41,846 nucleotides of DNA from Methanobacteriota archaeon (GCA_043823295.1 JBDRAY010000099.1:1-41846), one strand, 5' to 3'; numbered from the stretch's first letter, positions 3,957 to 34,742 are shown. A program made the numbers and translations. Notes: generated from the sequence alone by a model not told the origin.

Positions 3957-4547
3957 ATGGGTGATGATTTTATCCCTCCGCCTGAGGCCGTGGAGGTTGT
4001 CTCCGAGAAAGTCAGGAAAAAAAGGATTCTACCCATATTATTGGTAGTGGTTGTTGTCTTGCTCGTTGCTTTCATATTCTTCCTTCGAAGTAGCGTGGAG
4101 CCAATATCTAATGTCACCGTGTTTTCAACGTCAAGTCTCGGCGAAAAAATGTTTGCGAGCTCTCCTCTAATAGTCCCTCCCGGATTCACATTAACTGACG
4201 TGAATCACAGGAGTGCCCCCTTTAGGATGGGTAAAAATTTTTTACCTGTTGATGCGATAGAGCTTACTTACGCGAAAGACGGTGAGAAAATTATTGTTTT
4301 CATTGCGAAGGGTACGGTGGATGGTTGGAAGAGGATTATCGGAGGTAAGGGTTTCTGGCTGGAGGAGAGTTTCGGGGATAATGTTTATTCAGCCGACTAC
4401 AAATACTTTGATGAAACAATCAACTTTATCTACTGGTGGCATAACGACTCGATTATTGGGGTTAACGCCTCGGTCAGGACGGTAAACGTGATTGATTTGA
4501 CCGAGAAACTTGTTTTACACCACCCTCCAACAGAATCTCTCGCCTAG
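3957..4547 (+). CDS. Hypothetical single-pass (N-terminal anchor) membrane protein
   Basis: I prefer the ATG at 3957 (MGDDFIPPPEAVE...) to the TTG at 3906. One TM helix (ILPILLVVVVVLLVAFIFFL) is followed by a roughly 140-aa beta-rich ectodomain. No family was recognised with confidence. Confidence 0.5.
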   Translation: MGDDFIPPPEAVEVVSEKVRKKRILPILLVVVVVLLVAFIFFLRSSVEPISNVTVFSTSSLGEKMFASSPLIVPPGFTLTDVNHRSAPFRMGKNFLPVDAIELTYAKDGEKIIVFIAKGTVDGWKRIIGGKGFWLEESFGDNVYSADYKYFDETINFIYWWHNDSIIGVNASVRTVNVIDLTEKLVLHHPPTESLA

Positions 4548-4900
4548 GTTATGGTGCATATCCCACTAGTAATCTGACAGTTTAACGGGGTGGATGACCC
4601 AGTCCAGTATTGGGCTATTGCCATGCAATAGAGGCCGCACACGAGGTTTGCGGAAACCGCAGCAACAACAAGTCCAACAATAATCCATATTAATCCTTTT
4701 TTCGCCTCCGCCCGATCGTTAGGCGATTCCGCAGTAATGTACTTCAAACCCTGAATCGAAATCAATAGGACTGCCAAAGCCGCTGCAACAGTCTTGAGTG
4801 CGACGATTAAATCACTCATTTCAGTCAAATAATCTTGGCTGCTCACCAGATTGGCTGCAATCAGGAGAACAAAAACCACGACAATGATCCTTCCCTTCAT
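4544..4900 (-). CDS. VirB2/TrbC-like pilin candidate (short, secreted, two-helix hairpin)
   Basis: Signal peptide (MKGRIIVVVFVLLIAANLVSS) followed by helix-basic loop-helix: AAALAVLLISIQGLKYITAESPNDRAEAKKGLIWIIVGLVVAAVSANLVCGLYC. It is a close paralog of the 104-aa ORF at 17889-18203. It is the last gene of the operon that contains VirB4. Confidence 0.6.
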   Translation of the reverse strand: MKGRIIVVVFVLLIAANLVSSQDYLTEMSDLIVALKTVAAALAVLLISIQGLKYITAESPNDRAEAKKGLIWIIVGLVVAAVSANLVCGLYCMAIAQYWTGSSTPLNCQITSGICTIT

Positions 4901-4901
4901 T

Positions 4902-6032
4902 TTAAATCAATGCTCTGCAATCTCCAATACTTATTCCGAACGCTTCATTTAAAGCGAAGCAATAAATACCCTCAACGAGTTCTGCTGCAAGATATGCAAT
5001 GAAAACGCCGATTATTATATAGATTATACCCTTTTTTATGTCTGCCCTCTCTTGAGGATTGTCTGATGTCACGTATCTTAGCGCGTGTACGGCAATCAAT
5101 AGGACTGCGAGTCCTGCGACAACCTGGAGGAATGCTTCGTTTACTTCCCGTAGTGAATGCCCTAACGAAAATACTTCAATTGAGGGCTTTGGCCAAGGTC
5201 CTGGTGTGGGGCTTAAAGCTGCGGGAGAACTTACAGAACTTACTACAGTACTTATCGTCATTGTAGGAAGTAGAGATGCTATTGGGCTGGGCACGGGTGA
5301 ACCAGATATTGTTCCTATTGAACTCGGTATCGTAGGCACGGGGCTTGATGATGTAGCTGGAATGCTTTGGGGGGGAGTTGGTGTTTCAGGAGTTATGTGA
5401 AGACCCGTCATCGGGGGGACGGGTGTTGCCGCAGGGGAGAAGACCGGGCTTGATACTGTGGCAACTGAATGGCTGGTGGGAGGAAGAAACGTGGGGCTTT
5501 GCGGGGGAGGAAGAGTAGGGCTTTCAGGCGGTACTATTGTTGGACTCATTGGGGGTATAACTGTCGGGCTATCTGGCGGTACTATCGTGGGACTTTCTGG
5601 GGGAACAATCGTAGGGCTTGGAGGCACGACCGTCGGACTTGGCTGGGGGGTTGGTGTTCCACTTGCGTCAACATCGAATGTGCCAATATTCTGGTTTACT
5701 CCGGAATTCCAGGTGGAAGTTCCTGCGGTACGGAGACTACCTTGCGCAAAAACCTTAAAGACGACAGTATCCCCTCCAATCCCGCCTTCACTTCCCGGAG
5801 TAGCGGGGTCGTCTCCATTCACCGACATAATCCCGAAAATTCCTGGAGTAGTAACAACAAAGTCTGGGGGATAGTGCACTCCATTAATCCACGCTTCAAC
5901 AACAGTCCCAACCGGCGCGGGACTACCATCAATCAAAAGCGAACCGTAATAGCCGGCAGGGTTCGGAGGCTCTGCGGAAACACAGATTGAAACGGATAAA
6001 AAAAAGAGTAGGAAAGTGTTCAGCCACCTCAT
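4902..6032 (-). CDS. Secreted protein: N-terminal beta-rich module, Pro/Thr/Ser stalk and C-terminal VirB2-like hairpin
   Basis: Signal peptide (LLFFLSVSICVSA). A roughly 100-aa module is shared with the N-terminus of the 3918-aa protein. SPTIVPPx repeats and a long P/S/T-rich tract follow. The C-terminus VAGLAVLLIAVHALRYVTSDNPQERADIKKGIIYIIIGVFIAYLAAELVEGIYC aligns with the short pilins. Confidence 0.6.
   Translation of the reverse strand: MRWLNTFLLFFLSVSICVSAEPPNPAGYYGSLLIDGSPAPVGTVVEAWINGVHYPPDFVVTTPGIFGIMSVNGDDPATPGSEGGIGGDTVVFKVFAQGSLRTAGTSTWNSGVNQNIGTFDVDASGTPTPQPSPTVVPPSPTIVPPESPTIVPPDSPTVIPPMSPTIVPPESPTLPPPQSPTFLPPTSHSVATVSSPVFSPAATPVPPMTGLHITPETPTPPQSIPATSSSPVPTIPSSIGTISGSPVPSPIASLLPTMTISTVVSSVSSPAALSPTPGPWPKPSIEVFSLGHSLREVNEAFLQVVAGLAVLLIAVHALRYVTSDNPQERADIKKGIIYIIIGVFIAYLAAELVEGIYCFALNEAFGISIGDCRALI
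5480..5654 (-). repeat. About 7 tandem 24-nt (8-aa) repeats encoding SPT(I/V)(V/I)PPx
   Basis: Peptide: PSPTVVPPSPTIVPPESPTIVPPDSPTVIPPMSPTIVPPESPTLPPPQSPTFLPP. The plus strand shows reiterated GGnACnATnGTnGGnCTnTCnGG units. The antisense ORFs here (GGTIVGLSGG...) are a mirror artefact of the repeat. Confidence 0.85.
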
Positions 6033-6068
6033 AGTATCTCACTTAACATATTTACTTCAAAGGTTATT

Positions 6069-9000
6069 TTAATCCTTCCTGCTTGTTTTGTGAAAAATTA
6101 AGATGATTACCACTAAAAGTAGTACTAGTCCCCCAATCATAAATGCTCTTGAAAAAGACCCTATTCCCCCACCGTAAAACATTCCAACAGGGGCTCTTTG
6201 AGGGGCTGGCGCTCCAGACACCATTTCACTGAGTATTTCTGTTTCATTCAGTGCGACGTCCCATATCTTGACTTCGTCGATTACTCCTTCGAAGTAGTAG
6301 CCGTTTGAGAGGGCTCCGATCAATTGAGTGTGAGCGGCCGCAGTGTTTGCAACTATTCTCTCGCTCAGTCCCTCGAGTGTTCCGTCTACGTAAATTTTCA
6401 TGTTTCCTAATCCTCCGTATTCGTCGATGAAGAAGGCATTACTATTGTCTATGTCACCGCTTTCTCCAATGTCGAGGAAGAAGTTGTGGTAAGTCGTAGA
6501 CGGTGTTAAACCTCGCTCGCTCTCATACGATTCCGGGATTATAACGTCCTCGGAGTTCAAACTTAAGGTTCTTGCAGGCGCCGGGTGTGGTATGCCTTCA
6601 AGGTCTTCGATGTATGTTAACATCTGCTTCCTCATCCCCGTGAAGTAGCTCCAGTTGTCGCTTCGCCCGGAAAGGTCTGAGAGGATTTCCGCGCTCATGT
6701 TCACTGCGCTCGAGTATCTCGGAGTAAACGACTTATCCACACTCGCGTAAATCCCGTTCAAGTAGGCTTGAGCCTGGTTTGCGGTGGCTCCCGGATTCTC
6801 AGAAATGGCTTTCTCAAGGGTTGCGATTATTCTTGAATCTTCAATTCCCTCTCGCATCGACTCGTAGATGACTGAGTCTAGAACATCCCCACTCCATGAT
6901 GGAACAACAAGCTGGTATCCAGCCTGCGACCTATTACCCTTCAAAGTTCCAACACGCCCGTAGTATGGATGCTCTAAATCGTCGTAAGGGTGTAAACCCC
7001 ACACGTTGTAGGCGTACACGTAAACTCCAGTTCCATTAAGCGCTGAAGCATATACTCCATTTAGGAACCTGTTGTAGAGGATCTCAGGCATCGTCGCAAA
7101 GTATGTCGTATAGTATGACATTGAATCGCCTGAACGTGCAGTCTTCTCAACCTCTGTCTCATTTAACCTGCCGAGAGCGTACACCCTTATATCCAGCCAC
7201 GGGTCCATGGGTGCAAGGTTTCCTCCAGGATCGTCAGTGAAGGAGTGCTCCCACCCGCTTGCTGTTGCGGCACTCCAGCTTAGTGTGCGGTAGTAGTCGT
7301 CGATGAAGTAGACTATGACGTCTTCACTTCGCGTGCTCTGTTTATCCAGTGTGACTGTCACAGTGTTTGAACCAGGATTCAAGAAACTTCCAATACTTAC
7401 ATTGAAAATCTCTGCAGAGTAATTAAGGTCGCTTACAGTCCATCGCTCGATGTTATTTACTTTAATAGACGCTCGTACGTTTGGAGTCGCGCCGTATACT
7501 GTAAAGAATATGCTGTTTGCATTTGGGTCTGATCCGTCAGCTGATGTGGACAAAACAACCTGCCCTGTTGAGGAGGTGGGATTAGTCAGGAAGTGTCCTG
7601 CAAGCGGCTGCTCGCAGTTGGGGTAGTAAGTAACCCACGTTTCAAGTCCTGCCTCCTGAGCTAGCTTGTTCATAAAAGTAGTCCAACCCCGCTCTCCAGG
7701 ATCTACTCCCGGTTCGTCGCTGAAGCTTACTACCGGAGTGACTCCGAAGCCTGCGAAAAAGTTAGCGTATTGCTGAAGTATTGCAGGATATTCTCGCTTC
7801 AGATCTTCCGGATTGAATGTGAAGGCATTGTCTCTTACGTGTAGCATTACCTTGTCCGGCAGGATCCCCAAGTCGGCAAGTTTCTCAATCTCCTGCTGGT
7901 TGGGTGAGTAATCGATCGAGTAGCTGGCGCTTATCACAGGTTTAAAATATATCAGCGGGTTAATATCGTGTCTTTCCATGTTTGCTGCCGCAAGATCCCT
8001 TGGATTAGAAAAGTAAACTCCGGGAGTGTACGGGGAGTTGTATATATACGGGGTTGCGTCTGGCTGCTCAAGAGCAATGTCGTGGACGGTGAATTCAAGG
8101 TCGACTTGCTGGAAGTCGACTCCAGGACCAGAAATCGTGACTGTACCTGTGTATACACCCGGGTTCGCATCCCCTGGAACGTCTACTGTAAGCCAGACCT
8201 GCTGGCTTGATCCAGCCTTGACATCCATCTGATTCCCATCCTCCAAGTACCATGGATTTACGCCAAAAGCGCTTCCACTACCCGACTTCCATCTCTTATC
8301 TATTGCGACGACTTTCTGGATAGTTATGTTATCATCTGGGATTGTGTCTGAACCTTTTACTAGGTCGCTTACGCTAATTTGCACGTTACTTAAATCTTCG
8401 AAGGCGTATATCGAAAATGTCACAGGCTCCGAGTAACCTGCAACCTCAAATGCTTTGATTGTGTTGGTAATCTCGCTCGCACCAGGTATCGTATTTGGGT
8501 AAACCTTTTCCAAATAGTCTCTTGAATAAATTACGTAATTGTTTGGGTAGTCACCCGGATTTATCGTATTCGACTCTACATAATCCCACCTGTACAATGT
8601 CCTGTTCGACCTGTCAATCTCCCTGCTTGTATGAAGGTCATCGAAGCTTACGAAAGAAAGCCTGACGTAGTCTATGGGAAGCGGCTCTATGCCACTTAAC
8701 TGTTGTGGATAGAAAATCTTGAATGTGAAGTATCCGTCAATGCTTCGAAGTAGCTGGAAGGGATTGCTTTCAAGGTATATACGCAAAATCCTCCAGGTGT
8801 CGTCTCCCATACCCCCTAGTCCTCCGATTTCATGGTAGCTTATTTCTCCAAAGTCGAGTTTAGAATATACTGTGGGCTTGCAATAAGAGTTCATGTCATC
8901 GTATTGCCCGCAGTTGGTCTCATCGACAACATCCTTGTATCTAATCTCAAGGATGGCGTGAGAGTATGGGACTCCATTGCCCGAGAGGTTGAGACTGCTG

Positions 9001-12000
9001 GAATCCAACTTGAAGTGCATGCTTGTTTTCGGATAAAGTAGGCGGTACGTCGTAGACCCTTCACTCCGTGCCGCTTCCACACCATCTTCGAGGACTGCAG
9101 TCAAGTAATGCCAGACTCCGTCATTTACTGGAGTGATTCCTTGCGCATAGCTTACGTGGCTGCCGTTTCCAATTCCGAACTGTGCATCACCATTGGCCAA
9201 CCGTATCACGTATTCCTGATTTACCCAAGCCCCACTCCAAAGCCCGCGCTTGAGCACTCCCTGAGTGCCCGTACTCGTAGTCTTAACCCAAGCAGCTAAA
9301 GTGATTTCATCTCCAAGTCCTAAAGCAGGATTTGGATTAATTACAATGTTGTCGTCGACACCGTCGAACTCGTAACCCTGTCCGTACTTACCCGCAACCA
9401 ACTGCGGCGGAGTGTTCCCGTCGCCGTTACCGTGATTCCAATCAGTCAAAGTCCCATGGTAACCTCCCACAACATCATTCGCATTGCCTGAAAACGGGTA
9501 CTCCGCAACCAAACCAACAACACAAACACCACCCTCGTCAACCTGACCATCACAATCATTGTCCAAACCATCACAGGTTTCCACGCCGCCGTTTGTTGGA
9601 GTGCAAGTGGTTCCCATACAGTCCTCCGGAATTTCCCCGAAGATTGAAGTGATTGTTTCCGTCACGTTTATGATTTTATTACTCGGGTAGCCTGCCACAG
9701 TCATGGCTTCTACGATGCGTTCGTCCATAGGCCACGGCCACAACCCCTGCCCGGTCCGAACACCGTCTACGTATCGGCGGCAAAGGTTTGCGCCACGTGT
9801 CGTATTGAAGACGTTTTCGTTAGCGCCATAGGCGTCGGCGACGGTCGCAGCCTCAATATTGTTGTCGGTCGTCCAGTAACCGGGATCCTTATTGTGAAAT
9901 TGTTCTCCAATTACCGTGCTATTAGCGTAGATTAATCCTCCAGGTGGGTAAGTGCCGGCTTCCTTCCAGCGTGCTGATCCGTCTTGGACTTCCCCTCCAC
10001 TTATTGTCGGCCAAATTGGCTCTGTGGATCCAGTAGTACCGTTTACAATTAGCTTATAGTAGTGTCCGTTCCAAGTGGTTGGTATCCTATAGATATTACG
10101 TGATCCAGTATTGTAAAGAGTATTTGGTTTCCACTGATTGTGTGCTCCTAGAATCACGTTGTAATCCACTCCAGGGTGGTTTGTATACACTACATTATCA
10201 CGAATATCTGTTGTTGTAGATCCAGTCAAATAGAAAAGGGTTCTATCGTTGAAAGCAGGGATGTCCTGGTCTGCCGTCACATACGAAAGCGATCCTAAAA
10301 CTTTTATGTCTGCTGCCTGGTCCTGTTCGTCTAGTCTGTCTCGGGATATTAACCCGTAATATTGTGTTCCACTTGGATTCTGTTCTTTTAGGGAATCCCA
10401 AGTTGCAACGCAGTTTTCGCAAAGACCACCATAACTGTTATAGTACATTGAAAACGTCATTTTCGGGTCGCTTCGGCTCGTCCCCTCCCACCGACCGAAG
10501 CATCGGCGGAACGTAGTATTGTCGCCGTGCTGGGAGTTCGAATACGTCTTCCGCGCGATACCGAATCCGGCACAATCTTCAAAGGTGTTGTTATTCGATG
10601 CAGTGTGTGCACCGAATATGTTCGTATTACCGTCAAACGCATCCCAGCCGACAACCCTTCTAATTATGTTGTCGTGTGAACGCGCAATGTTGACCACGGT
10701 TGCGGAAGAATTAAAAGCATTTAATCCTTCTATAACGAAGAAGTTGTTTTGATCCAATAAAACCGGTTCATTTACTCCTGCACCATTTACCCATGCTTTC
10801 CCGTCACGGTAAGCCTTAACCGTTATTGGGGATCCGCTTGACCCGCTTAATCCGTCAGGGGGATTAATCATGGAATCAGAGCCAGTGTAAATTCCATCTA
10901 AAAGACACAGTGTGTGTCCCGGCTGGGCGATACTCCAAAAGTCTGACACCTTAAACGGGCTTGCAAGTGTCCCGGTTCCCCCGCCGGTCGGCGAGGCATA
11001 ATAGTCGCAGTCGGTAGCGGGAGAAGCGCAACCTTCATCGACAACCTCATCACAGTCATTGTCAACTCCATCACAGAATTCAGGAGAAGGAGTGCACACA
11101 TCATAGTGTTCGCAACCGTCTGTGAGGTCTACATTCGCATCTTCGTAGTTGTGGAAGCATCCGTCGAACTGGCATTCCCCGGCGACGCAGCTGGTGAATG
11201 CTTTCGGTATGTAGCAGATGTTTCCGCAGGCTCCGCAGTTGAAGGGGTCGGTCTGAAGGTCGTAGCCTTCGTCTACTGTGGAGGCGGCGGTTTGCGTGCT
11301 GCATCCCATATCGTAGTAGCTTGCGTCGCAGTCGTTGTCGATGCCGTCGCAGACTTCAAGGTAGTCGGGATTGCAAGGGCTTGGCTGGTCGGTGATGGCG
11401 TTCCATGAATAGTTCGCGGCGAGCTGAAGGGTACCTATGGGATTGCTTGTGTAGAAGTTGTTTCGGAACATTCCGGAACTGTTCTTATCGTTCATGGTGT
11501 ACGACCACCACTTCACTGGGTTTTCGTAGTTGGCTGGACCTCCCACATAGTCGAATCCGTAGGTTGAAAGTAGGTTCGGCGAATCCGCGATTTTCCTGGG
11601 ATCGCAGCTTGTCTCCTCGTGCGCCCAGCTTACCAGAGCAAAGTTTTCCCGCTCGAGGAGGTCGAGTCCATACCACGTGTCTCCTATCTGTCCTCCATAG
11701 CGGACTTGGGTGTATTCGTCATACCAGTGGTAGGGGTTGACCATGTCGTCGTACATGAGCACCTTGATGTTTGGGTTGAAGGAGTGGATGATGTCGCTTA
11801 CGTTGTTTATGAATTGTCCAAAGAGCTGGTAGTTTTCTAGTCCAAGCCTTTTCGAGCGGCTGTCGCGGTTGAAACCCCAAATTTCGTCCATGGTTATGAG
11901 GATGTAGTCGGGCGTGAGCTGCTGCATCGTTGGGCGGACGATGTTTTCCTTGTAGACTTCGAGGACTTCTGGGTCTGCGAAGCTCATCTTTTCCGTGCGC

Positions 12001-25507: not shown

Positions 25508-27328
25508 TTACTTTTTCTTTTTAGGCGTCTTCTGTGGTTTTTTCTTTTTCTCCCGAAGTAGATCACTCTCCTCGGAAGCCCTCTCTCTGAGACGTTCCAT
25601 CGACCTCAAAGCCTTACCTCGGGTAATGTCTTTTTTCGCCTCACCAACCCGGCGTTCAGCATCCTTTTTCGCTTCATCGACCTGATTTTCAGCCTCCTTC
25701 TTCATCTCATCGAATTTAGTTCCCTCACGGCCTTTAATAGGCCCAACGTTAGGTGAAACAGGATTTAAGGATCTTGCAATAGGAAAAGAGGTTTTTGATT
25801 GTCTAACTCCCCCTTCACCCGCCGGCGCGGAAGAAACACGTTCACCTGAAGCCCCGTAAGTTTCACCCGAAGCTCCGTATCTTTTCCCTTTAGAACCCCT
25901 CATCTGAGGTAATACCCTGCCGGTAGTATCTTCTTTCATGTGTGCTTGAAGGCTTCTGTCAGCAGCCCCCTCGTACCTGTCGCTTCTAGCTGGTGCCTTC
26001 CCAGCCGACCAATCCGACTCTGTCGGCCCTTCAGCTTGATCCCGCATAGCCTCAACCTCCCTTTTAGCCGCATCCCCCGCATCCTTATGTTTTTTACCCC
26101 CACCCCTCTTAGGACTGCCCGGACTTGAAAACCCAGCTCCCGCATCACCTTCAGCTGGTCCGGCCCCTCCAACAGCTCCTCCAGAAAGCCTTGAAACAGT
26201 TGACGGACTGAATGCGCCACCTGGTCTTCCCAACCCTGCTCCGTATCCCCCAGACTGCAGTCCCGCGATCATGCTTGCCTCGGGGATAGCCCTGGTTAGC
26301 ACACTTTTCGCTGCGTGCAGCGCGGCATCTTGCCTGCCTTGAAGCAATCCTCCAAGACCTGTAATCCACGTGTTGTTTGACGCAAGTCCTGCAGCGAATA
26401 TTCCCCCACCAACCATGTTCATTAAATGGTTCATAGTAAGCGGTGTCGCACCAACCATTACCAGCCCGACCATCGTCATGCCCCAGGAGATGATAGCACC
26501 CATGATTGGGGGGCCGAAAACTGCCGGTTGCCAATGGATTAACATGGGCCCAACCGAATTCATTGCGCTTAAAGTAAATACGAGCCATAGAATTTGGACT
26601 ACTGGAGTGAAAATCCAGTTTACTGCCTCTTTAATGTATTTTCTACCCCAACTGCGCGTTAAGTCGAAGAAATATAGGAAGATGAGTATTGGAAAAACAG
26701 CGGCATATGCGACTACGAAAAAATACCTTAACAATGCCATGATGAGCGTCCAACCAAGAATACTCAACATAATGATAAAAACACAGCACACGCCAAATAT
26801 TTCACCTCCAGTAGCTGCTTCAGTCATGGTGTTTAAATCCCCTAGTGTGGTCGCATTGCTGTTATAAACCGCATCCACCAGTGCTGAGGACAAGTCAAGA
26901 AGCGTTTGGTAGATTATGGGTGCCATGGCGACCAATATCATGCTGAACAACAGCTTGGAAAGCATTGCCTTAGCCCTCGCCCTTCCTCTCGGATTCGTGG
27001 ACTTGACTATGTAATATAGTGCTGTGAAAAGCACTGCGGAAATGTATAAGGGTATTAGTATGCTAGTGAAATACGGGAGTAGGGCGTCTATTCCCGCCGA
27101 CACTTCACAGTTTCCAGTACTGTCCCAACAGTATATTGTGGGGTTCATGATGATGAATCCTAAAAGAAGATCCATCTCCCATTCAAGCAATGGGATCATA
27201 AGCGCCATTAGACCTGAAAAAAACTTCCAAGTGTTTGACTGGGATTGGATCGGGATTGTCGCTCCAACCTGAACTAAAGTGAAGGAAATCAAAACCAAAA
27301 CTACGATGTAAACCTTAATCTTGTTCAT
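25508..27328 (-). CDS. VirB6/TrbL-like polytopic membrane protein with a Gly-rich and Lys-rich C-terminal tail
   Basis: About 7-8 TM helices in the first roughly 370 aa. It is clearly paralogous to the N-terminus of the 1654-aa ORF (PTIYCWDS../PTIYPFDK..; LRYFFVVAYAAVFPILIFLYFFDLTRSWG vs FRYLVVQLLAIFFPLSFFLFFFDYTRTLG; WIFTPVVQILWL vs WIFMPVAQVLVL). The tail ends in EKKKKPQKTPKKKK. I prefer the ATG at 27328 (MNKIKVYIVV...). The alternative upstream ATG at 27403 would overlap the preceding gene by 89 nt. Confidence 0.6.
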   Translation of the reverse strand: MNKIKVYIVVLVLISFTLVQVGATIPIQSQSNTWKFFSGLMALMIPLLEWEMDLLLGFIIMNPTIYCWDSTGNCEVSAGIDALLPYFTSILIPLYISAVLFTALYYIVKSTNPRGRARAKAMLSKLLFSMILVAMAPIIYQTLLDLSSALVDAVYNSNATTLGDLNTMTEAATGGEIFGVCCVFIIMLSILGWTLIMALLRYFFVVAYAAVFPILIFLYFFDLTRSWGRKYIKEAVNWIFTPVVQILWLVFTLSAMNSVGPMLIHWQPAVFGPPIMGAIISWGMTMVGLVMVGATPLTMNHLMNMVGGGIFAAGLASNNTWITGLGGLLQGRQDAALHAAKSVLTRAIPEASMIAGLQSGGYGAGLGRPGGAFSPSTVSRLSGGAVGGAGPAEGDAGAGFSSPGSPKRGGGKKHKDAGDAAKREVEAMRDQAEGPTESDWSAGKAPARSDRYEGAADRSLQAHMKEDTTGRVLPQMRGSKGKRYGASGETYGASGERVSSAPAGEGGVRQSKTSFPIARSLNPVSPNVGPIKGREGTKFDEMKKEAENQVDEAKKDAERRVGEAKKDITRGKALRSMERLRERASEESDLLREKKKKPQKTPKKKK

Positions 27329-27839
27329 CTTGGGATTTTCGAATCCTTGAAGCTCTTTGAGCTTCCATAATTCCTTTTTTTGCGAGTTCGTCCAATCTTT
27401 CATTTGGGATGTTGTATTTCCCTATTTTTTCGGAGAATATTTTATCGTCTTCGCGAATCTTCTTTTCGGTTTCGTTTGCCTTCCTCCCTTCCGCCCAGAG
27501 GGTTTTCCCGATTTTGAACTCGCATTTACTGCACTTTAAATTTTCTCCGTCTTCTTTCAGATACGACAAATCTTTTTCCTTGAATATCTGCTCGTCGCTG
27601 TTGCATGTGGGGCAAAGGTTTTTTTCGAAAGTTACGTTCCACATGGGAGTTCTCGTAAGCCTTTGACCCCTTAAGGTGTAGTCCTTATACTTGTGCCTTA
27701 CAATAGTCTCATAGATTTTCTGCCGTGCGTCATCTTCATTCAAGTTGTGTCTTGCAAGCCAGTTTTCTGCAAAACCCTTAATTACTTCCTGCTCTCTCCT
27801 GCTTAACGGGAGTTTTGCCGTGTATTTTTTATCTTCCAT
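27315..27839 (-). CDS. Zinc-ribbon protein (CxxC...CxxC), function unknown
   Basis: 174 aa with a CPTCNSDEQ ... LKCSKCEF four-Cys ribbon. Both termini are charged and helical. It lies 3 nt downstream of the 1654-aa gene. Confidence 0.55.
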   Translation of the reverse strand: MEDKKYTAKLPLSRREQEVIKGFAENWLARHNLNEDDARQKIYETIVRHKYKDYTLRGQRLTRTPMWNVTFEKNLCPTCNSDEQIFKEKDLSYLKEDGENLKCSKCEFKIGKTLWAEGRKANETEKKIREDDKIFSEKIGKYNIPNERLDELAKKGIMEAQRASRIRKSQDEQD

Positions 27840-27842
27840 TTT

Positions 27843-30800
27843 TTACGTCACCCTACTTCCGGGCGCTACTGGAGTCGAAACCATGTTTTGCAATCCAGTG
27901 AATAGTTCGAATACTCTGCGAGTCTCCCCTCCCATTGACGGGGCTGAAAAGTCGTGTCCCGCCGCACGGAAGGCTTCGTCAATCGTCATCTTATCTGGGG
28001 CTGATGCAGTTCCAGTCAACGCTTCAACACTTGCCCTTACTGCCGCTGAATCGGTAGTCCCCAATGCGGCGTCTAATCCTTGGGCACGCCTTTCAAGCTC
28101 CTCTGCAATTGCTGCCGCCTGGGCCATGTTTGCCGTATCGTTATCAGAAATACTTCCCTTCGGATTTATTGCTCTTTCGGCATAGATGTTTGTGGCCTCT
28201 TGCAAAGCCTTCGTCTGGGTTCTGATGTAGGCTAACTCTTCCTCTTGCGCGGCAGGTAAATCTGCGGGTGAAGCTCTCGCCTGGTTTTGAGAGTGTCGTC
28301 CAAGCTCGACGGCCGAGGCTAAAGTCTCGTCTACTGCCATTCCCGCGTCTGTCGGATTAAATCCCGAGCGTCGTATCTGAGTTCTTCCACGAGCGACGGC
28401 TGCATTACCCCCGGAAATAACCGTTTCGTCGAGTCTTTCCCCAGAGATTATTATTTTTTCATACATGTCTTCAGCAGTCGTCACCTGCTCCCGGGAACCG
28501 GCTCCCGAGGCCGCCCAGCTTACAAGCAGGTGCCCTCCTTCGTGACCTAACGCGGGTATGACACTTTCTCCTGTGGGGGTATCTCCATTGAAAATATCAG
28601 CCTGAAGCATTTTGCTTCCTGCATTGAGTACCAAAGTTCCAGTCGTCTTTTCTATTGCATACGGATTTGCGTCTCTCCAGTCGTAGTCGAATTTAATCGC
28701 CTTAGGCCGCATGGCTTCGGGAAGGCTTGCCGCGTGGGCTGCGTAGCGCATGAGAAAGTCGTTTACCCTGGATCCTGGCAATTCCTTCTGCACGAGCGCG
28801 TCAGCTTCGTCAGAGTCTATGTAGACGCCCAACTTCTTCATGGCTTCAAGCTGCTTCCCCCTCTCCGTTAGGAACGCGTCGTCCACAGTCTTTGTAATCC
28901 TTGACTGGGTTGTCGGATCCCACACTTCAACAGTATCCCCCATCGTGTAGTTTTCAGTCAAGACTCCCGCCCCTCTAAGGTGTACTGTATCACTAGTTCC
29001 TCCAAAGTAGGTTGAATTATTTTCAACGAATTTTCGGGCGTGAGCTGGACTTTCAATATGCACGACGCCTGCCGTAGTGGGAGTGTACTGTCCCTCATAA
29101 TTATACTTTCCAGCCCCGCTTGCAGCCTTCTCATCATAGTGGCCGGCAAGATCTGACAAGGCTATGAAACCTCTACCCTCCCTAATGCGGTCAGCCCGAT
29201 AATCCAAATCCACAGCTTCACTGTGACGACCCGCCTTCCTCCTCTGCTTTGCCCCCTCCCTGAATTCACTAACCGTTTCTCCCACTTGCTTTTTCTCCAC
29301 CCTGAATCCGTAAACCAGGTTGCCGCTCGCATCCCTTTCCTGAACGAGCTCGTCCCTGTCGAAACTGCGCGATTTTTTTACTCCGTCGGTAAAGCTTATC
29401 TGCGCGTTTCTTCCCCCGTGCTTGCCGATCGACTGGTAAAGCGGGTCCTCAGCTGCATGCAGCAACTCCGACTGAAAAGTCCCGTAAGTCGTGTTTCTGT
29501 CAAGTAAGGTGCCACTACTCTCAAACGATTCCGGAAGTGTTGCGACGTTTCTGACCATGACCTTCCCCTCGCTGTCGGTAGCCCAATTCTCTTGCTTTTC
29601 CACAATCGCATGTCTCTTATCTCTCTTAACGTCTGCAGCTGCAATGTCTGCAGGGGTTCCACTTGCCCTAAGGGCCTCTTCCTCCCCCCTAAGCTTGTTC
29701 ACCATCTGCGTATTCGTTACCTTCTCCTCTTTATCATAATAGCCCTGCAAGATTGGCTCTATTCTCACTCTCTCAACCTGACCTCCTTCGTAAGCCATCC
29801 TCTGCCTCAAGTAAGAGTAGTCTTCCTGGTTTAAGAGCATGGCCCCGCTTTCAGTCCTCTCCAAGTCCATGGTCAAGCTCATGGCACCCGTCTGAGGGTC
29901 GAGGATGCGCTCCATCGGGGTGGCTGCTGCCATCTCTTCGGGAGTAAGCTGCACGTATCCAGCAAGCCCTCTGGCGGTGAAAGCCCTTGAGGCGTAATCT
30001 CCCATCTCGGCAAAAGCAACAGCATTGTCAAGAGGTTTCGCTCTATACAACTTCCCCTCATCATCATCCTTCTTCGACATACTCGCCTGAGCCGACTCCC
30101 TCTCTTTCATTGGTACTGTTTCAGGGTTCCTATGACCTATCCTGTGGGCTCTGAAATGCGTTAGAAGGCTTTCCCTCTTTTCCCCCCATTCATTAGCGGC
30201 CTCACTACTTAAGGTTCCGGCACGCTTTCTCCTGGAAACCTCTTTCTTGAAATTATCATCATTCAAATCAACTATCTCCTCGGAAAAGATTTTACTCCAA
30301 GCCTCCTTCTCAGACACTTGGTCAAAAGTCCTTGCCCCAAGTGAAGCATCTGCTATCTCCTGCCGCTTATCCCCCACCCTCGACTCTAAATCCCTGACAA
30401 GCTCGGTTCCAGGATGCGCTTCATAACCCTTACCTTCGCTTAAAGACTGGGAATCCGCCAAAACCAACTTGAAGATGTCCTGCCGCTCATCCTTACTAGA
30501 ATAATTGTTTTCCAAGCTAGTCAAGCACGCTTGGACGTAGTTGGGATCCCTCTCATTTAAAACATCAGTCCCCTCCCGCAAAGCATCCAACGTCCCACTA
30601 ATAGCACGCACGTGTCTGTCTCGCTTGGCTCTATAATGCGCTTTCACATCATTCCTTCTCGCATCATTAGCAGTGGTTCCATCAAATTTCGTAAGTTTAA
30701 TCAACCTCGCGTCAATCTCAGCAAGCCTTCCGCCAGTCGCAGTTAGCCGCTCTTTTTCAAGGTCTTCGATTTCAGCAAGCGTTCTACTTGCACTCGAAGC

Positions 30801-32807
30801 CTTCTTCGCTATTCCACCCCTCCCCATTATTCCCCAAAGCTTCCTCCCTGCTCTACTCCTCCCATGGACTTGCCTGAAGCCCATACCCATCATCCGATTT
30901 CCAACCTGATAACCCACCCAACGAGCGCCAGGAGGCAGAAGCTGAGCGCTCGTACCAACAATAAAAGCTCCTATCTGGCGAATAGGCTCAAAAGGACTAA
31001 TAGGCATTAAAGCGAAGCCAACACCCTTAACACCCCTTATGAATGCGCCTGCAATCGCCATCTTAGAAGCGCCGGGAGTTTTTGCAAGCTCCATAGCGTA
31101 ATGCAAAAGAGACATACCTCTAAGCCCTTGCGAAGTGCCCCTGTCCACAGCCCTCATAACCGCATCACTGTCGACGAGCATGGGGGCTATGTGTTCACTC
31201 CACCATCGAGTTGGGTAGCTTAAGTCTTGGCCATGTAGCGTTTTCATACCTGTGGGACCTCCCTTACCATAACGCCATTCATCCGGGACGTTACCACCCA
31301 TACCTCCACCACTCCTAAAATCAGGAGCCTCAGGCACGGAAGTTGTGGCTGTCACGTCAGAGCCCTCTACTCCCCCTCCTCCAGTGCCGCCAGCCCCGCC
31401 GCCGGAAGCCTTGTCAGGGTGTTTTGGAACCCTGGTCCCCGTCTTATACCCGTGGTAACTCTCCCTCGCCCCCCGGGCAATATTCCCTCCTGTTCTTGCC
31501 ATACCACTACCATAAGCGCGGCCTGACCCTGTGAAAAATCCACCGACAGCCCCTAAAATACCACCTCGGCCATAACCTCTACTCACACCCCTCCCAATCT
31601 CACCGTAAGGCTTCATAGTCTCCTTGACACCACCCCACATTCTACCCCAAATACCACTCATACCCGGAGTAGTCTGTCCGGCCCTCAAGTAACCCACCTG
31701 AGCGGCGCCTGCAACAATGGAATCAGGTCCGAAGCCCATCCCAATCTGGCCGACGCTTTGAAGCATGGCGCCTGAAAACGTGCCTCCCCGCGCAGCCCCC
31801 ATCGCGGCTGTTATGCCTCCAACCCACTTGAGCATTCCAGTCACCATCAAGCCCGAAACAGCGAAAGCGGTCATCCCCGCCAAAACGACCAAACCGTGAG
31901 CTAGGAAGTGGTCTGGAACTCCCCCACCAGTCAAGGCGATAACTGTTATTGCCAGCACTAAGACCTGGGCGACGGGCATGAAAATCCAAAGTATTGTGGT
32001 CCGAAGAAGGTTAGCTCCTAAAGTTCGGGTGTAGTCGAAGAAAAAAAGGAAGAATGAGAGCGGGAAGAAAATCGCAAGTAATTGGACTACCAAATACCGG
32101 AAGGCTAGAATTGCCAGTCCGATAACGGAGATTATGATCGGCAACCAACCAAGGATGACGGCTTGGGGACCTAGGAAAGCAACTACTACGCCGTTTACAA
32201 CCTTATCCGACCAATCATCCTCAACAATATTCCATATGGTTTTGACCATATCCAATTCAATATCCAACAGCAACTGAAAGAGGGGTGGGGAAATAGAAAC
32301 TAAAAACATGCTCATCAAAACCTTGTTAAACTGTGACTTAGCCAATGCCCGGTCGCTGGGGGATATTGAAACATAGACTATGTAAATCGCGATCAGAAGG
32401 AGGAGTATTCCATAAAATGGGATAAGCAACTTTAATATTGTTTTAGTAAGGTTGGAGACTGCGGGATTACCCTTATCAAAGGGGTAAATCGTGGGATTCA
32501 GCCTTAATGACCACCCAACCAACCATAACAATCCTTCAACGACAGGCTCAAGGAGGAATGTGATGAAGGCGTAAATCTGTTTGACAGCTATGTGTACTAA
32601 TCCGAGGAATCCCTTACCTAAGTCGAGGAGTCCTTTACCAGATGCTATGTACCACGTCCAACTCCCAATGTTTGCCAAAGCACTCTTCTCAGTATCCCAA
32701 CCCTGCCCGCAGGTGTTCAAGGCCAAAGAGAAAAATACTGCGGTGATTAATAGGGTCAATAATACCGTATTCCATTTGGAGTTTTGCGAATTATTTACTC
32801 CTTTCAT
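27843..32807 (-). CDS. Extended VirB6-like protein (1654 aa): N-terminal polytopic domain, Gly-rich linker and a roughly 1200-aa soluble region with an HExxH motif
   Basis: The first roughly 345 aa are paralogous to the 631-aa VirB6-like protein. A Gly-rich segment follows (ASGGGAGGTGGGGVEGS). The long soluble part carries ALGHEGGHLLVSW (HEGGH at residues 1422-1426, nt 28530-28544). Confidence 0.6.
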   Translation of the reverse strand: MKGVNNSQNSKWNTVLLTLLITAVFFSLALNTCGQGWDTEKSALANIGSWTWYIASGKGLLDLGKGFLGLVHIAVKQIYAFITFLLEPVVEGLLWLVGWSLRLNPTIYPFDKGNPAVSNLTKTILKLLIPFYGILLLLIAIYIVYVSISPSDRALAKSQFNKVLMSMFLVSISPPLFQLLLDIELDMVKTIWNIVEDDWSDKVVNGVVVAFLGPQAVILGWLPIIISVIGLAILAFRYLVVQLLAIFFPLSFFLFFFDYTRTLGANLLRTTILWIFMPVAQVLVLAITVIALTGGGVPDHFLAHGLVVLAGMTAFAVSGLMVTGMLKWVGGITAAMGAARGGTFSGAMLQSVGQIGMGFGPDSIVAGAAQVGYLRAGQTTPGMSGIWGRMWGGVKETMKPYGEIGRGVSRGYGRGGILGAVGGFFTGSGRAYGSGMARTGGNIARGARESYHGYKTGTRVPKHPDKASGGGAGGTGGGGVEGSDVTATTSVPEAPDFRSGGGMGGNVPDEWRYGKGGPTGMKTLHGQDLSYPTRWWSEHIAPMLVDSDAVMRAVDRGTSQGLRGMSLLHYAMELAKTPGASKMAIAGAFIRGVKGVGFALMPISPFEPIRQIGAFIVGTSAQLLPPGARWVGYQVGNRMMGMGFRQVHGRSRAGRKLWGIMGRGGIAKKASSASRTLAEIEDLEKERLTATGGRLAEIDARLIKLTKFDGTTANDARRNDVKAHYRAKRDRHVRAISGTLDALREGTDVLNERDPNYVQACLTSLENNYSSKDERQDIFKLVLADSQSLSEGKGYEAHPGTELVRDLESRVGDKRQEIADASLGARTFDQVSEKEAWSKIFSEEIVDLNDDNFKKEVSRRKRAGTLSSEAANEWGEKRESLLTHFRAHRIGHRNPETVPMKERESAQASMSKKDDDEGKLYRAKPLDNAVAFAEMGDYASRAFTARGLAGYVQLTPEEMAAATPMERILDPQTGAMSLTMDLERTESGAMLLNQEDYSYLRQRMAYEGGQVERVRIEPILQGYYDKEEKVTNTQMVNKLRGEEEALRASGTPADIAAADVKRDKRHAIVEKQENWATDSEGKVMVRNVATLPESFESSGTLLDRNTTYGTFQSELLHAAEDPLYQSIGKHGGRNAQISFTDGVKKSRSFDRDELVQERDASGNLVYGFRVEKKQVGETVSEFREGAKQRRKAGRHSEAVDLDYRADRIREGRGFIALSDLAGHYDEKAASGAGKYNYEGQYTPTTAGVVHIESPAHARKFVENNSTYFGGTSDTVHLRGAGVLTENYTMGDTVEVWDPTTQSRITKTVDDAFLTERGKQLEAMKKLGVYIDSDEADALVQKELPGSRVNDFLMRYAAHAASLPEAMRPKAIKFDYDWRDANPYAIEKTTGTLVLNAGSKMLQADIFNGDTPTGESVIPALGHEGGHLLVSWAASGAGSREQVTTAEDMYEKIIISGERLDETVISGGNAAVARGRTQIRRSGFNPTDAGMAVDETLASAVELGRHSQNQARASPADLPAAQEEELAYIRTQTKALQEATNIYAERAINPKGSISDNDTANMAQAAAIAEELERRAQGLDAALGTTDSAAVRASVEALTGTASAPDKMTIDEAFRAAGHDFSAPSMGGETRRVFELFTGLQNMVSTPVAPGSRVT

Positions 32808-32848
32808 TCACATAGTTTATTAGTTTAATCCCTCTAAATAATTAAAAA

Positions 32849-34369
32849 GTGAAGCTGAAGGCGGCGGTTTTTATTTCAGGGGTGGCGGTTATGATAATCG
32901 AGATACTCGGCAGCAGGTTGATAGCACCCTATTTTGGAAACTCGATTTTCGTATGGACCTCAATAATTGGGGTAGTCCTCGCATCACTCAGCCTTGGATA
33001 CTACTTTGGGGGACGGCTTGCAGACAAGGAACCTTCAATCGAAAAGCTTTCACAAATCCTATTATACGCTGGACTAGCAGTCTGCTTTATACCCGCAATC
33101 TCCACACCAATCCTCCTATTATCAACACTTTTTGGATTGAAACTCGGCTCAATAACAGCCTCACTAATACTACTTTCAATCCCAAGCATTCTCCTGGGTG
33201 TAGTATCCCCCTACGCAGTCAAACTCGAGACTAAAAAACTCGGGGTTTTAGGTAAAACCGCCGGAAACCTATACGCAATATCAACATTCGGAAGCATCAT
33301 AGGGACTTTCCTCACAGGATTCGTATTGATTCCCTTAATTGGTGTGAAATCAATTCTATATCTTGTAGCGCTCCTACTTTTCTCAGCCTCAATAATCCTG
33401 TCAATAAAGAACAAAATCAAAGTTTTCGCTTCAATCGGAATCATGGTACTGATAATAGTATACATTGCCCCAAAAAGCGAGGCATTAGACTCGGCTGGAC
33501 TCGTTTACAGTCACGACACCCCCTACTATCACATCACGGTGAGGGATGGGGAAAAGTGGGGCCGCAATCTGAGAAACCTGCACCTTGATATCGGACTCCA
33601 AGGAGGAATGTTCTTAGACACCAATGAAAGCATCTACCCCTACTCCTATTTCTTCCAGGTTCCTTTTACATTGAGAGAAGACATACGGGACGTCCTATCT
33701 TTAGGTACTGGAGCGGGTATTACTCAATCAAGCCTTATTAAACACTATCCTGATGTGCGTATCGATACTGTGGACATAGACTCTGAGGTAGCTAGGGTTG
33801 CAAGCGAATACTTCGGTTTCGTTGAAAGTGAAAAATTACGGTTCTACGTCGATGACGCGCGATTTTTTTTAACGAACTCCCAGAAAAAATACGATCTGAT
33901 AATCCTGGACGTGTTCACATCCGACCCCTCAACACCCCCTCACTTAACAACGACTGAGATGCTTGGCGGGATAAAAGACCACTTGAATGAGGAAGGCATT
34001 TTCGCCGCTAACGTAATAGCATCCCTTGATGGTCAGTACTCGTATTTTTTCAAAAATTTCGTAAAGACTTGTAGAGGGCAATTCTCATGCGTTCACATTC
34101 TTCCGATGAGTGGGGAATTGGAGGAGCTCCAAAACATTATTATAATCGGGATGGATTCCAGCGAATGCATCGGGAAAGAAGATTTGCGCATTCTTTTAAG
34201 GATGCTTCCCGAAAACCCAATAGTCGACTGGAAGACATATTCAGCAAACCTGATGTTTGATGACCTAAACCTTACTGGCGCATCCGTTTTGACTGACGAC
34301 TATGCGCCGGTCGAATACCTTCAGATGAAGGCTTCTGAGAAAGTAGTCCAAAGATACTACCAGTATTAA
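32849..34369 (+). CDS. Membrane-fused spermidine-synthase-like (class I SAM-fold aminopropyltransferase-like) protein
   Basis: GTG start. The N-terminal roughly 200 aa have about 7 TM helices (FISGVAVMIIEILGSRLIAPYFGNSIFVWTSIIGVVLASLSLGYYFGG). The C-terminal domain contains VLSLGTGAGITQS..VRIDTVDIDSEVARVASEYFGF..LRFYVDDARFFL..KYDLIILDVF, the typical spermidine-synthase-like fold. Confidence 0.7.
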   Translation: MKLKAAVFISGVAVMIIEILGSRLIAPYFGNSIFVWTSIIGVVLASLSLGYYFGGRLADKEPSIEKLSQILLYAGLAVCFIPAISTPILLLSTLFGLKLGSITASLILLSIPSILLGVVSPYAVKLETKKLGVLGKTAGNLYAISTFGSIIGTFLTGFVLIPLIGVKSILYLVALLLFSASIILSIKNKIKVFASIGIMVLIIVYIAPKSEALDSAGLVYSHDTPYYHITVRDGEKWGRNLRNLHLDIGLQGGMFLDTNESIYPYSYFFQVPFTLREDIRDVLSLGTGAGITQSSLIKHYPDVRIDTVDIDSEVARVASEYFGFVESEKLRFYVDDARFFLTNSQKKYDLIILDVFTSDPSTPPHLTTTEMLGGIKDHLNEEGIFAANVIASLDGQYSYFFKNFVKTCRGQFSCVHILPMSGELEELQNIIIIGMDSSECIGKEDLRILLRMLPENPIVDWKTYSANLMFDDLNLTGASVLTDDYAPVEYLQMKASEKVVQRYYQY

Positions 34370-34382
34370 AAAAAAAAATTTT

Positions 34383-34405
34383 CCCTGGGCTGGAAAAGCC
34401 CAGGG
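34383..34405. terminator. Perfect 8-bp hairpin between convergent genes, flanked by A/T runs (candidate bidirectional terminator)
   Basis: CCCTGGGC-TGGAAAA-GCCCAGGG. It is preceded by A11TTTT (34368-34382), which is a T-run on the minus strand. It is followed by CAGTTTGCTTTT on the plus strand. Confidence 0.45.
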
Positions 34406-34415
34406 CAGTTTGCTT

Positions 34416-34742
34416 TTAACCGCACTGTTGGCTGTATATTAATGATACAACTTCTACTGCTATCAATACGATCACTAGTCCGACCACGGCGTGCACAATA
34501 CCTTCTTTGGCTTGCTTTCTCGCTCCAGGGTCGTCTGAGGATCCGATCCACTTGATACCGTTAATAACGATAACCAAGGTCGCAACAGCTCCGGCAATCA
34601 TCTCCAGAAGCCAGCGAATATTGTTCACTATAGAACATATTTGCTGTGCTGTTGTTTCGCTCCATGTTCCCACGGTCGCTTCAGTAGCCACCACGAAGGA
34701 GGCTAACAACAGAATGCCTAATAACGGCAACATTTTTTTCAT
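34416..34742 (-). CDS. VirB2/TrbC-like pilin candidate (divergent third short paralog)
   Basis: Signal peptide (MKKMLPLLGILLLASFVVATEA) then LLEMIAGAVATLVIVINGIKWIGSSDDPGARKQAKEGIVHAVVGLVIVLIAVEVVSLIY. This is the same helix-basic loop-helix layout as the other four modules. Confidence 0.5.
   Translation of the reverse strand: MKKMLPLLGILLLASFVVATEATVGTWSETTAQQICSIVNNIRWLLEMIAGAVATLVIVINGIKWIGSSDDPGARKQAKEGIVHAVVGLVIVLIAVEVVSLIYSQQCG

Follow-up and report, generated by a model that had tools for sequence, protein, structure and literature searches.

The five hairpin genes

The stretch of DNA analysed here, called the window below, is 41,846 nt long and comes from an assembly named as that of a Methanobacteriota archaeon (GCA_043823295.1 JBDRAY010000099.1:1-41846). 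It contains a minus-strand cluster of about 31 kb in which five open reading frames (ORFs), designated p108, p751, p104, p376 and p118 after their lengths in residues, each encode one copy of a helix-loop-helix module of the kind seen in the VirB2/TrbC pilins of type IV secretion systems (T4SSs). The copies lie at three positions of the cluster. The genes, with the module of each and its score against the Pfam family PF18895 (T4SS_pilin), are:

4544-4900, minus strand: p118, free pilin of 118 aa that ends the array, 1 nt beyond p376; module at 4640-4786, 43.8 bits
4902-6032, minus strand: p376, pilin hairpin with an N-terminal ectodomain and a Pro/Thr/Ser-rich linker, 376 aa; module at 4974-5120, 46.0 bits
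17889-18203, minus strand: p104, free pilin of 104 aa whose first 8 nt overlap the end of p751; module at 17961-18107, 41.4 bits
18196-20451, minus strand: p751, pilin hairpin between two ectodomains, 751 aa; module at 19465-19611 (residues 281-329), 29.8 bits
34416-34742, minus strand: p108, free VirB2/TrbC-like pilin of 108 aa and head gene of the cluster, matched by both PF18895 and PF04956; module at 34446-34595, 49.7 bits

An earlier note on this DNA, made from the sequence alone, had reported five paralogous modules in a single locus and read them as pilins. The peptides that it quoted match the translations of the five ORFs exactly, and a hidden Markov model (HMM) of the five modules, each 49-50 residues long, picked out exactly these five when the window was translated in all six frames, with E-values from 1e-28 to 9e-24. 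No clear sixth copy was found in any of the six frames, the next-best match having an E-value of 0.089. In E-value the five modules are separated from the background by 22 orders of magnitude, and a count of five copies is far beyond chance.

All five modules exceed the gathering score of PF18895 (26.6 bits), and p108 is the only one to pass that of PF04956 (TrbC; 30.9 bits against 27.9), with p751 just under the cut-off at 27.3 bits. The modules also match, weakly and below threshold, a 'pilin-like' family of mycoplasma integrative and conjugative elements (ICEs) in NCBIfam. The reading as VirB2/TrbC-type hairpins is borne out by these scores and by the company of the genes, which are encoded with a VirB4, a PrgI/VirB3-like protein and VirB6/TrbL-like proteins. 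No unrelated family of proteins with two transmembrane (TM) helices was found above threshold, and the predicted topology is consistent in all five proteins.

Three other identities were considered and set aside. A holin-like identity would concern p108 only, whose XhlA match (E-value 0.002) scores 18.7 bits against a cut-off of 34.7. A match of p751 to the fusexin Fsx1 (14.8 bits in NCBIfam, cut-off 650) is ascribed to a TM helix or to low complexity. An archaeal type IV pilin with a class III signal peptide was dropped because the neighbouring ATPase is a VirB4 and not of the PilB/FlaI type; the N-termini are also of the Sec/signal peptidase I (SPase I) kind, and there is no such Pfam match.

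The modules are considerably diverged, with pairwise identities between 12 and 31 of 49 residues (24-63%). The closest pair is p118 and p104, which share 31 of 49 residues and 61% of their nucleotides; here the proportion of differing synonymous sites (pS) is 0.88, so that these sites are saturated, as the earlier note had proposed, in an estimate that rests on the small sample of 49 codons. Among the other pairs 12-24 of 49 residues are identical, and synonymous divergence (dS) is above 1.6 or saturated.

Topology and predicted structure

Signal peptides and topology were judged by simple rules (a hydropathy scan, the density of Lys and Arg, and the placement of Cys). All five proteins have Sec-type signal-like N-termini with small-residue ends (VSS, ASA, VSA, VSA and TEA), and in all five the loop has a Lys/Arg density of 0.22-0.29 as against 0-0.10 in the outer segments. 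Every Cys of the five proteins falls in a predicted extracytoplasmic segment. The membrane topology of VirB2 fits all five, with both termini predicted to lie outside and the Lys/Arg-rich loop in the cytoplasm.

The AlphaFold2 model of p108, made with 30 homologues, is a hairpin of two helices (residues 29-67 and 72-107) with a pLDDT confidence score of 82.8. The mature protein has exactly two cysteines, Cys36 at the start of helix 1 and Cys107 at the C-terminus, a pattern kept in 26 of 28 family members. A disulfide between them would tie the two helices together where the hairpin is open, and the pair appears to be positioned as a covalent analogue of the head-to-tail cyclisation of pilins. 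The C-terminal tail of p104 has four cysteines (CGLYC...C..C), as does that of p118, and p751 has 28 + 8, all in its ecto segments.

When the p108 model was compared with the PDB by Foldseek, the best match had an E-value of 0.99 and was not to a pilin, a bare helical hairpin being too simple to discriminate. When PDB sequences were searched with profiles from two pilin alignments, the only match was the Pf3 filamentous-phage coat protein (E-values 0.09-0.3). Since a two-helix hairpin is so simple a fold, the null outcome of the structure search is not counted against homology.

Conservation of the cluster and age of the duplications

Contigs that carry p751 orthologues at 88% and 46% identity have the same gene order as the window cluster. 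In these relatives genes for a VirB6-like protein of about 1,630 aa, a 174-aa protein, a second VirB6-like protein of about 610 aa, a protein of about 375 aa, a PrgI/TraC-like protein and VirB4 are followed by a fused pilin of about 750 aa, three small pilins in strict tandem and then housekeeping genes. In the related locus L022 the p108 orthologue stands directly upstream of the large VirB6-like gene, whose product has 8 TM helices, and the upstream neighbours in relatives (a small ORF, PMT_2, PheRS-beta and aRF1) match those of the window. Order and housekeeping flanks (aRF1, split PheRS-beta and PMT_2; CBS) are kept where VirB4 is 61-98% and p751 46-88% identical. Such conservation of neighbours and order argues for a fixed chromosomal site and vertical inheritance. 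In NCBI the orthologues are labelled 'TrbC/VirB2 family protein' (p108) or 'pilin'.

In a neighbour-joining tree of all modules five orthogroups are resolved, each paralogue grouping with its own orthologues from diverged genomes. Orthologues of p104 occur in L001, L010 and L019, and those of p118 in L001/L014 and L019; for p751 there are about six full-length orthologues (45-88% identity), always directly after virB4. In more distant Altiarchaeota virB4 is followed by two or three small pilins and the 750-aa form is absent, and the number of genes in the array that follows virB4 varies from 2 to 4 within the group. Measured against a strain about 92% identical, the ratio of nonsynonymous to synonymous substitution (dN/dS) is 0.06 for p104, 0.23 for p751, 0.30 for p118 and 0.04 for VirB4. 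For p376 it is 0.77 over the aligned part; across lineages the hairpin and C-terminal tail of this protein are near-invariant and its N-terminal ectodomain is hypervariable and prone to indels. Orthogroups and ratios together indicate that the pilin duplications are old and that each copy is maintained under purifying selection, the variable ectodomain of p376 excepted, as had been suggested from the divergence of the closest pair.

The description as a single locus holds in so far as the copies belong to one functional cluster of about 31 kb; physically they occupy three positions, and it is in the relatives that the four downstream copies are tandem. The count of three free and two fused pilins is likewise true of the window, but the fusion in p376 is specific to this strain, the corresponding protein being a free pilin of 124-144 aa in every relative examined.

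Organization of the cluster

In the direction of transcription come o93, p108, an opposite-strand spermidine-synthase-like gene, o1654, o174, o631, o377, a further opposite-strand gene, the PrgI/VirB3-like gene, virB4, p751, p104, a giant gene of 3,918 codons, p376 and p118. Spacing is tight between PrgI and VirB4 (1 nt), VirB4 and p751 (3 nt), p751 and p104 (-8 nt) and p376 and p118 (1 nt), which indicates co-transcription. Apart from the pilin genes the features are:

6069-17825, minus strand: giant surface protein, 3,918 aa (Pfam matches, TM scan)
20455-22743, minus strand: VirB4-like ATPase (P-loop_TraG, AAA_10 and DUF87)
22745-23686, minus strand: PrgI/VirB3-like protein with a TraC-like (VirB4 N-terminal-like) domain (PF12666)
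24368-25501, minus strand: o377, conserved soluble protein with no Pfam or NCBIfam match (syntenic orthologues of 354-375 aa)
25508-27403, minus strand: o631, VirB6/TrbL-like protein with 7 TM helices and a disordered, charged C-terminus (TM scan, TrbL match of an orthologue)
27315-27839, minus strand: o174, small zinc-ribbon-like protein (weak zinc-ribbon matches; 174-aa orthologue at the same position in L014-L019 and L022)
27843-32807, minus strand: o1654, VirB6-like protein with about 8 TM helices and an extension of about 1,300 aa (TM scan, paralogy to o631, syntenic orthologues)
32849-34369, plus strand: spermidine-synthase-like multi-TM gene, separating p108 from the rest of the cluster
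34882-35163, minus strand: o93, small conserved gene directly upstream of p108 with no family match (position only)

Genes of 88-98 aa occur at the position of o93 in the relatives L022, L023 and L024. The spermidine-synthase-like gene also splits the cluster in L023 and L024, there with an STT3-like gene; it is absent in L022, and is therefore an insertion into the cluster that is specific to a lineage. By its position and conservation p108 is a candidate for the ancestral or major subunit.

The VirB4 protein is the only one of the cluster with a Walker A motif in a scan for it. It matches P-loop_TraG (91.5 bits), AAA_10 and DUF87, and in NCBIfam it scores best against the CD1110 family NF045971 (293 bits, under the equivalog cut-off of 325); the scores against CedB (NF041017, 60 bits, cut-off 700) and CedD (48 bits, cut-off 600) are far lower. 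Its nearest plasmid relatives are monoderm (Streptomyces, Embleya, Pontibacillus, Clostridium and Enterococcus; 24-30% identity). The adjacent PrgI/VirB3-like protein matches PF12666 (PrgI) above the gathering score at 31.2 bits, and also TrsD and the N-terminal region of the VirB4 family of mycoplasma ICEs; its orthologues have a precomputed match to PF26593 (TraC-like).

The two VirB6-like proteins are related to one another, o631 and the N-terminal 8-TM domain of o1654 being paralogues (hhalign probability 99.9%, E-value 1.8e-33). The L022 orthologue of o631 (33% identity, E-value 4e-70) matches TrbL (PF04610) with an E-value of 3.9e-4 and has a precomputed TrbL_3 match. The true start of o631 is probably Met26 (about nt 27328), where the alignment with its orthologue begins (MNKIKVY), and this would remove an apparent overlap of 89 nt with o174. 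There is no Walker A motif in o1654. Its C-terminal extension, about 1,300 aa long, is Cys-free and charged and is probably cytoplasmic. An HEGGH (HExxH) motif lies within the extension near residue 1420, and the orthologue of o1654 in L022 weakly matches 'BSP peptidase' (E-value 0.021), so that the extension may be a zincin-like protease domain carried on a channel protein.

Both VirB6-like proteins also contain a hairpin that recalls the pilin module. In o631 it is embedded at about residues 112-167 (YYIVKSTNPRGRARAKAMLSK; PF18895 E-value 0.13, hhalign probability against the pilin profile 35%, sub-threshold), and in o1654 a weak one lies at about residues 117-177 (E-value 0.027, hhalign probability 8%, sub-threshold). 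Their loops, STNPRGRARAKA in o631 and SISPSDRALAKS in o1654, resemble the pilin loop SESPKGRAEAKKG. These similarities are suggestive of sixth and seventh, divergent modules inside o631 and o1654, and they echo a proposal that VirB2 is homologous to VirB6 and CedA1 to CedA (PMC9905601).

The N-terminal ectodomain of p751 (260 aa) is Cys-rich, with TSP3-type repeats for which the TSP_3 match is weak, and the C-terminal ectodomain (420 aa) is beta-rich. The AlphaFold2 model of the protein is poor overall (pLDDT 53.8), with values of 65-85 in the beta-rich C-terminal domain. Foldseek with this model gave only weak matches to jelly-roll or Eph ligand-binding-domain-like sandwiches (E-values of at least 3e-3), from which no ectodomain function is assignable, and a phmmer search of the PDB gave nothing for the C-terminal part of p751 or for the o1654 extension. 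We consider p751 a candidate hairpin-anchored adhesin.

Strain-specific insertions

Two insertions distinguish the window from its relatives. The giant gene (11.7 kb) is a clean single-gene indel in the spacer between p104 and p376, and it is absent from this position in L001 and L014-L021, the strain about 92% identical included. Its product has a TM segment at either terminus, a subtilase of family S8 with an I9 propeptide, Laminin_G_3 and GH20b/GH123_N-like domains and MopE-type metal-binding repeats, and may be a cargo or adhesin co-transcribed with the pilin array.

The second is an in-frame insertion in p376, at about 5191-5970 on the minus strand, that comprises a domain of about 105 aa with no Pfam match and a Pro/Thr/Ser-rich linker of about 170 aa with imperfect repeats of the form SPT(I/V)VPP. 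As the extension of about 230 aa is absent from the p376 orthologues, the ancestral set was four free pilins and one fused.

Host, flanking genes and absent functions

The flanks of the cluster encode archaeal housekeeping proteins, among them A-type ATPase subunits B and D, aRF1, a split beta subunit of phenylalanyl-tRNA synthetase (PheRS-beta), PMT_2 glycosyltransferases and a CBS protein. The closest relatives of VirB4 are found in Altiarchaeota genomes, the nearest being SCGC AAA252-I15 (98% amino acid and about 92% nucleotide identity), and the host is an uncultured Altiarchaeota archaeon. The PheRS-beta gene (38142-38966, plus strand; 274 aa) begins at the B5 domain. Both SCGC AAA252-I15 and a split pheT have been described as features of the Altiarchaeales (PMC4975002), and the split at B5 gives independent support to the assignment.

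Downstream of the cluster the flank at 2252-4547 differs from that of relatives, the prolyl-tRNA synthetase (ProRS) and Methyltransf_11 genes of L014 and L019 being missing. In their place are two short ORFs without a family match (3242-3556 and 3574-3915), and the A-type ATPase genes come after the CBS gene; this part of the window may be a local rearrangement with gene remnants.

No Pfam or NCBIfam match to a type IV coupling protein (T4CP) was found in any major ORF of the window, no relaxase or integrase match among its ORFs, and no tRNA gene within it. We found no paper combining Altiarchaeota with VirB4, and the genome papers on Altiarchaeales do not mention VirB genes, pilins or secretion. 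The two membranes of Altiarchaeum enclose a periplasm of 32 nm (PMC4460559). A link to its grappling hooks, the hami, was considered and dropped, the hamus subunit being an S-layer-like protein with no pilin similarity (PMC4460559).

Poly-pilins in other Altiarchaeales

An exhaustive profile search with the module gave 6,749 cluster representatives at E-values up to 1e-3, the top matches carrying 4-17 modules per chain, and those multi-module top matches that have names are from Altiarchaeales. Among them are proteins that we call poly-pilins (P0053-P0060; L025:4175-9247 and L026:10001-15328), with 10-17 PF18895-type hairpins joined by Cys-containing linkers; one is 1,775 aa long with 17 modules, and OYT27652.1 has 10 modules in 1,039 aa. 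Two poly-pilin genes lie between the gene for ribosomal protein L39e and an Mrp antiporter operon, away from virB4. We found no paper describing such proteins, and they are apparently undescribed.

A proposed machine and its alternatives

We think it probable, though well short of certain, that the five modules serve as hairpin subunits, of the VirB2 family, in a domesticated machine derived from a T4SS, one that is fixed in the chromosome and inherited vertically and in which the hairpins have become subfunctionalised. The machine would descend from a monoderm-type (MPF-FATA-like) T4SS that lost its coupling ATPase, relaxase and wall hydrolase. Each of the five proteins would be exported by Sec and its signal peptide cleaved by SPase I; the hairpins would then be stored in the cytoplasmic membrane, stabilised at their outer ends by disulfides, and VirB4, acting on a VirB6 platform, would extract them and polymerise a pilus-like tube into or across the wide periplasm. 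In such a tube p108 would be the core (ancestral or major) subunit and p104 and p118 specialised minor or alternative subunits. The hairpin of p751 in all cases, and that of p376 in the window strain, would serve as an assembly handle displaying large adhesive ectodomains, and these two proteins would take the place of the VirB5 tip protein of Gram-negative systems. The machine would probably serve for contact between cells, with DNA or protein being transferred or taken up, and not for plasmid conjugation.

Such an organelle is made plausible by the pili of the Ced/Ted systems (PMC9905601) and by the pilin arrays of Patescibacteria (PMC12102498), and given two membranes and a 32-nm periplasm (PMC4460559) the tube would have something to span. 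The earlier note had proposed major and minor subunits, or alternative filaments, and this reading of the paralogues appears reasonable.

Several points weigh against the proposed pilus-like machine. The filament is deduced from genes, the roles of the individual paralogues from position and conservation, and signal-peptide cleavage and topology from simple rules. The nearest relatives of VirB4 belong to monoderm systems, which are not known to produce pili; the negative result for a T4CP and a relaxase covers the window, and the rest of the genome could encode either; and 10-17 covalently joined modules at a distance from virB4 do not sit easily with a classical pilus subunit. No significant match to solved conjugative pilins came from Foldseek or from the searches of PDB sequences, a result that is judged uninformative.

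Some of the same observations would suit hairpins that are membrane-embedded parts of a channel or envelope scaffold and not of a pilus, the paralogues forming a hetero-oligomeric ring or array around VirB6. Small two-TM proteins of monoderm T4SSs may be of this nature, and the name pilin would then express homology and not function. VirB4 comes nearest to the CD1110 type of monoderms, one PF18895 gene stands at the head of a conjugative cluster in actinobacteria, a host group in which no conjugative pilus is known, and the modules weakly match the 'pilin-like' family of mycoplasma ICEs. Both VirB6-like proteins seem to hold a related hairpin, in keeping with the suggested homology of VirB2 and VirB6 (PMC9905601), and the poly-pilins at Altiarchaeales housekeeping loci, with 10-17 units, would have 20-34 TM helices. 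We regard a channel or scaffold as a genuine possibility but an unlikely one, in view of the TrbC/VirB2 threshold passed by p108, the formation of pili by members of the wider family, in archaea as well as bacteria (PMC9905601), the large Cys-rich ectodomains and conserved outer Cys pairs, which suggest exposure beyond the membrane, and the 32-nm periplasm of Altiarchaeum that would need bridging (PMC4460559).

Less probable again is that the paralogues are interchangeable major pilins, expressed one at a time, that vary the surface so as to evade pilus-specific viruses or to alter the range of partners. Multi-pilin arrays in Bartonella, Anaplasma and Patescibacteria have been read in this way (PMC12102498), and the p376 ectodomain, hypervariable, indel-prone and with a dN/dS of 0.77, would suit it, as would an array of 2 to 4 genes among Altiarchaeota. 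However, old and stable orthogroups with low dN/dS (p104 0.06, p751 0.23, p118 0.30) are not what recent copies with fast turnover would give, proteins with architectures as unequal as 104 and 751 aa cannot be equivalent, and genes that overlap or are spaced by 1-3 nt argue for co-expression. As for membership of an unrelated two-TM family, holin-like or similar, or a chance resemblance of composition, p108 has its weak XhlA match (E-value 0.002; 18.7 bits, cut-off 34.7) and Foldseek does not discriminate among helical hairpins. This explanation is nevertheless effectively refuted, all five modules being above the curated PF18895 threshold and 22 orders of E-value from background, all five lying within a VirB4/VirB3/VirB6 cluster that is conserved across the phylum, and PF18895 also heading a plasmid conjugation cluster.

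The favoured reading, that of a domesticated T4SS-derived machine, can be extended into a more ambitious proposal, which we offer as doubtful. A monoderm-type conjugation machine would have given rise, in a double-membraned archaeal phylum as a whole, to a permanent envelope organelle whose tube is built by a division of labour among VirB2 hairpins, with a disulfide-closed p108 core, specialised small subunits, hairpin-anchored adhesins replacing VirB5 and, in sister lineages, poly-pilins of 10-17 hairpins. If true, T4SS filaments would here be constructed in a way not seen in bacteria, and DNA or protein might be exchanged by this route in Altiarchaeota biofilms.

Altiarchaeota are abundant subsurface carbon fixers and have a double membrane, which is rare among archaea. 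T4SS-derived machines without conjugation functions are emerging as key devices of cell-cell interaction, for example Ced/Ted DNA import in Crenarchaeota and the T4SSs of epibiotic Patescibacteria, and a phylum-wide, chromosomally fixed version in Altiarchaeota would be a third, independent case. Genetically it separates clearly into the ancestral position of a pilin, an array of four genes particular to the lineage, and hairpins fused to adhesin-like domains, and it offers testable candidates for bridging the 32-nm periplasm and contacting neighbours. The free, fused and concatenated hairpins form a natural series for asking what the VirB2 fold can build.

Comparison with known systems

The only plasmid match of p108 by tblastn is on the Embleya sp. 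plasmid NZ_CP108778.1 (E-value 0.4), 4 kb upstream of the second-best plasmid match of VirB4. It falls in an ORF of 176 aa (273859-274389; L027:7860-8390, plus strand) that is missing from the PLSDB gene table and scores 72.4 bits against PF18895, and which is followed by genes for a TrbL_4-like protein of 753 aa, PrgI, VirB4, T4CP, relaxase and an NlpC/P60 hydrolase. The plasmid thus shares with the window the core order of PF18895 pilin, VirB6/TrbL-like protein, PrgI and VirB4 (about 30% identical), but it has one pilin gene and retains T4CP, relaxase and NlpC/P60 hydrolase, whereas in the window a four-gene pilin array follows virB4 in the place of these three genes and VirB6 is duplicated. 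Because p108 holds the position of the single pilin in this bona fide conjugative relative, it may be the ancestral or major subunit. We note that the Embleya PF18895 gene sits uneasily with a statement that Gram-positive T4SS classes are without virB2 homologues (PMC12102498).

That most T4SSs encode one pilin, as the earlier note had it, is true as a generalization, but arrays of 2-11 divergent VirB2-like genes beside an MPF-FATA-like virB4, with no relaxase, are known from 383 assemblies of Patescibacteria, and pilin genes are also amplified in Bartonella and Anaplasma (PMC12102498). In Patescibacteria these relaxase-less T4SSs and their pilin arrays are essential (PMC12102498). The window has what characterizes such an array, namely at least two divergent VirB2-like genes near an MPF-FATA-like virB4 and no relaxase, and resembles the Patescibacteria further in its PrgI/TrsD-like and VirB6-like partners and its chromosomal location. 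Array genes there (PF18895/PF04956) average about 25% identity, and the five modules of the window are 24-63% identical. It differs in its archaeal host from a double-membraned lineage, in the division of the pilins between the cluster head (p108) and the array after virB4, and in its two VirB6-like paralogues, one with a 1,300-aa extension; fusions such as p751, with ectodomains on both sides of the hairpin, are unreported in PMC12102498.

The Ced and Ted systems import DNA in archaea and have VirB2-like pili of CedA1 or TedC (PMC9905601). They are likewise archaeal, chromosomal and relaxase-less, and combine a VirB4-like ATPase, a VirB6-like pore and a VirB2-like pilin, a likeness of architecture only; TedC has a cleavable Sec signal peptide, and the VirB6-like protein apparently has a pilin-like N-terminal hairpin. 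There is no detectable sequence relationship to the window proteins, and the PDB sequence searches described above should include the solved CedA1 and TedC (PMC9905601). Ced/Ted systems have one pilin (plus CedA2 in some species) and no ectodomain-fused hairpins, as against five hairpin proteins in the window, and for the window VirB4 the monoderm CD1110 type is a far nearer match than CedB.

In the rvh T4SS of the Rickettsiales, VirB6 has proliferated with large flanking extensions (PMC2653234). This system and those of Bartonella and Anaplasma resemble the window cluster in being vertically inherited and non-conjugative, in having ancient duplications that fall into discrete orthologous groups, and in their VirB6 extensions. 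Unlike it, they are Gram-negative MPF-T systems of intracellular bacteria, with VirB7-11 and VirD4, scattered in islets and without sequence affinity to it. The window cluster is not a new kind of system, since its pilin family is in Pfam, its orthologues are automatically annotated as pilins and multi-pilin arrays have been published; it extends a known theme.

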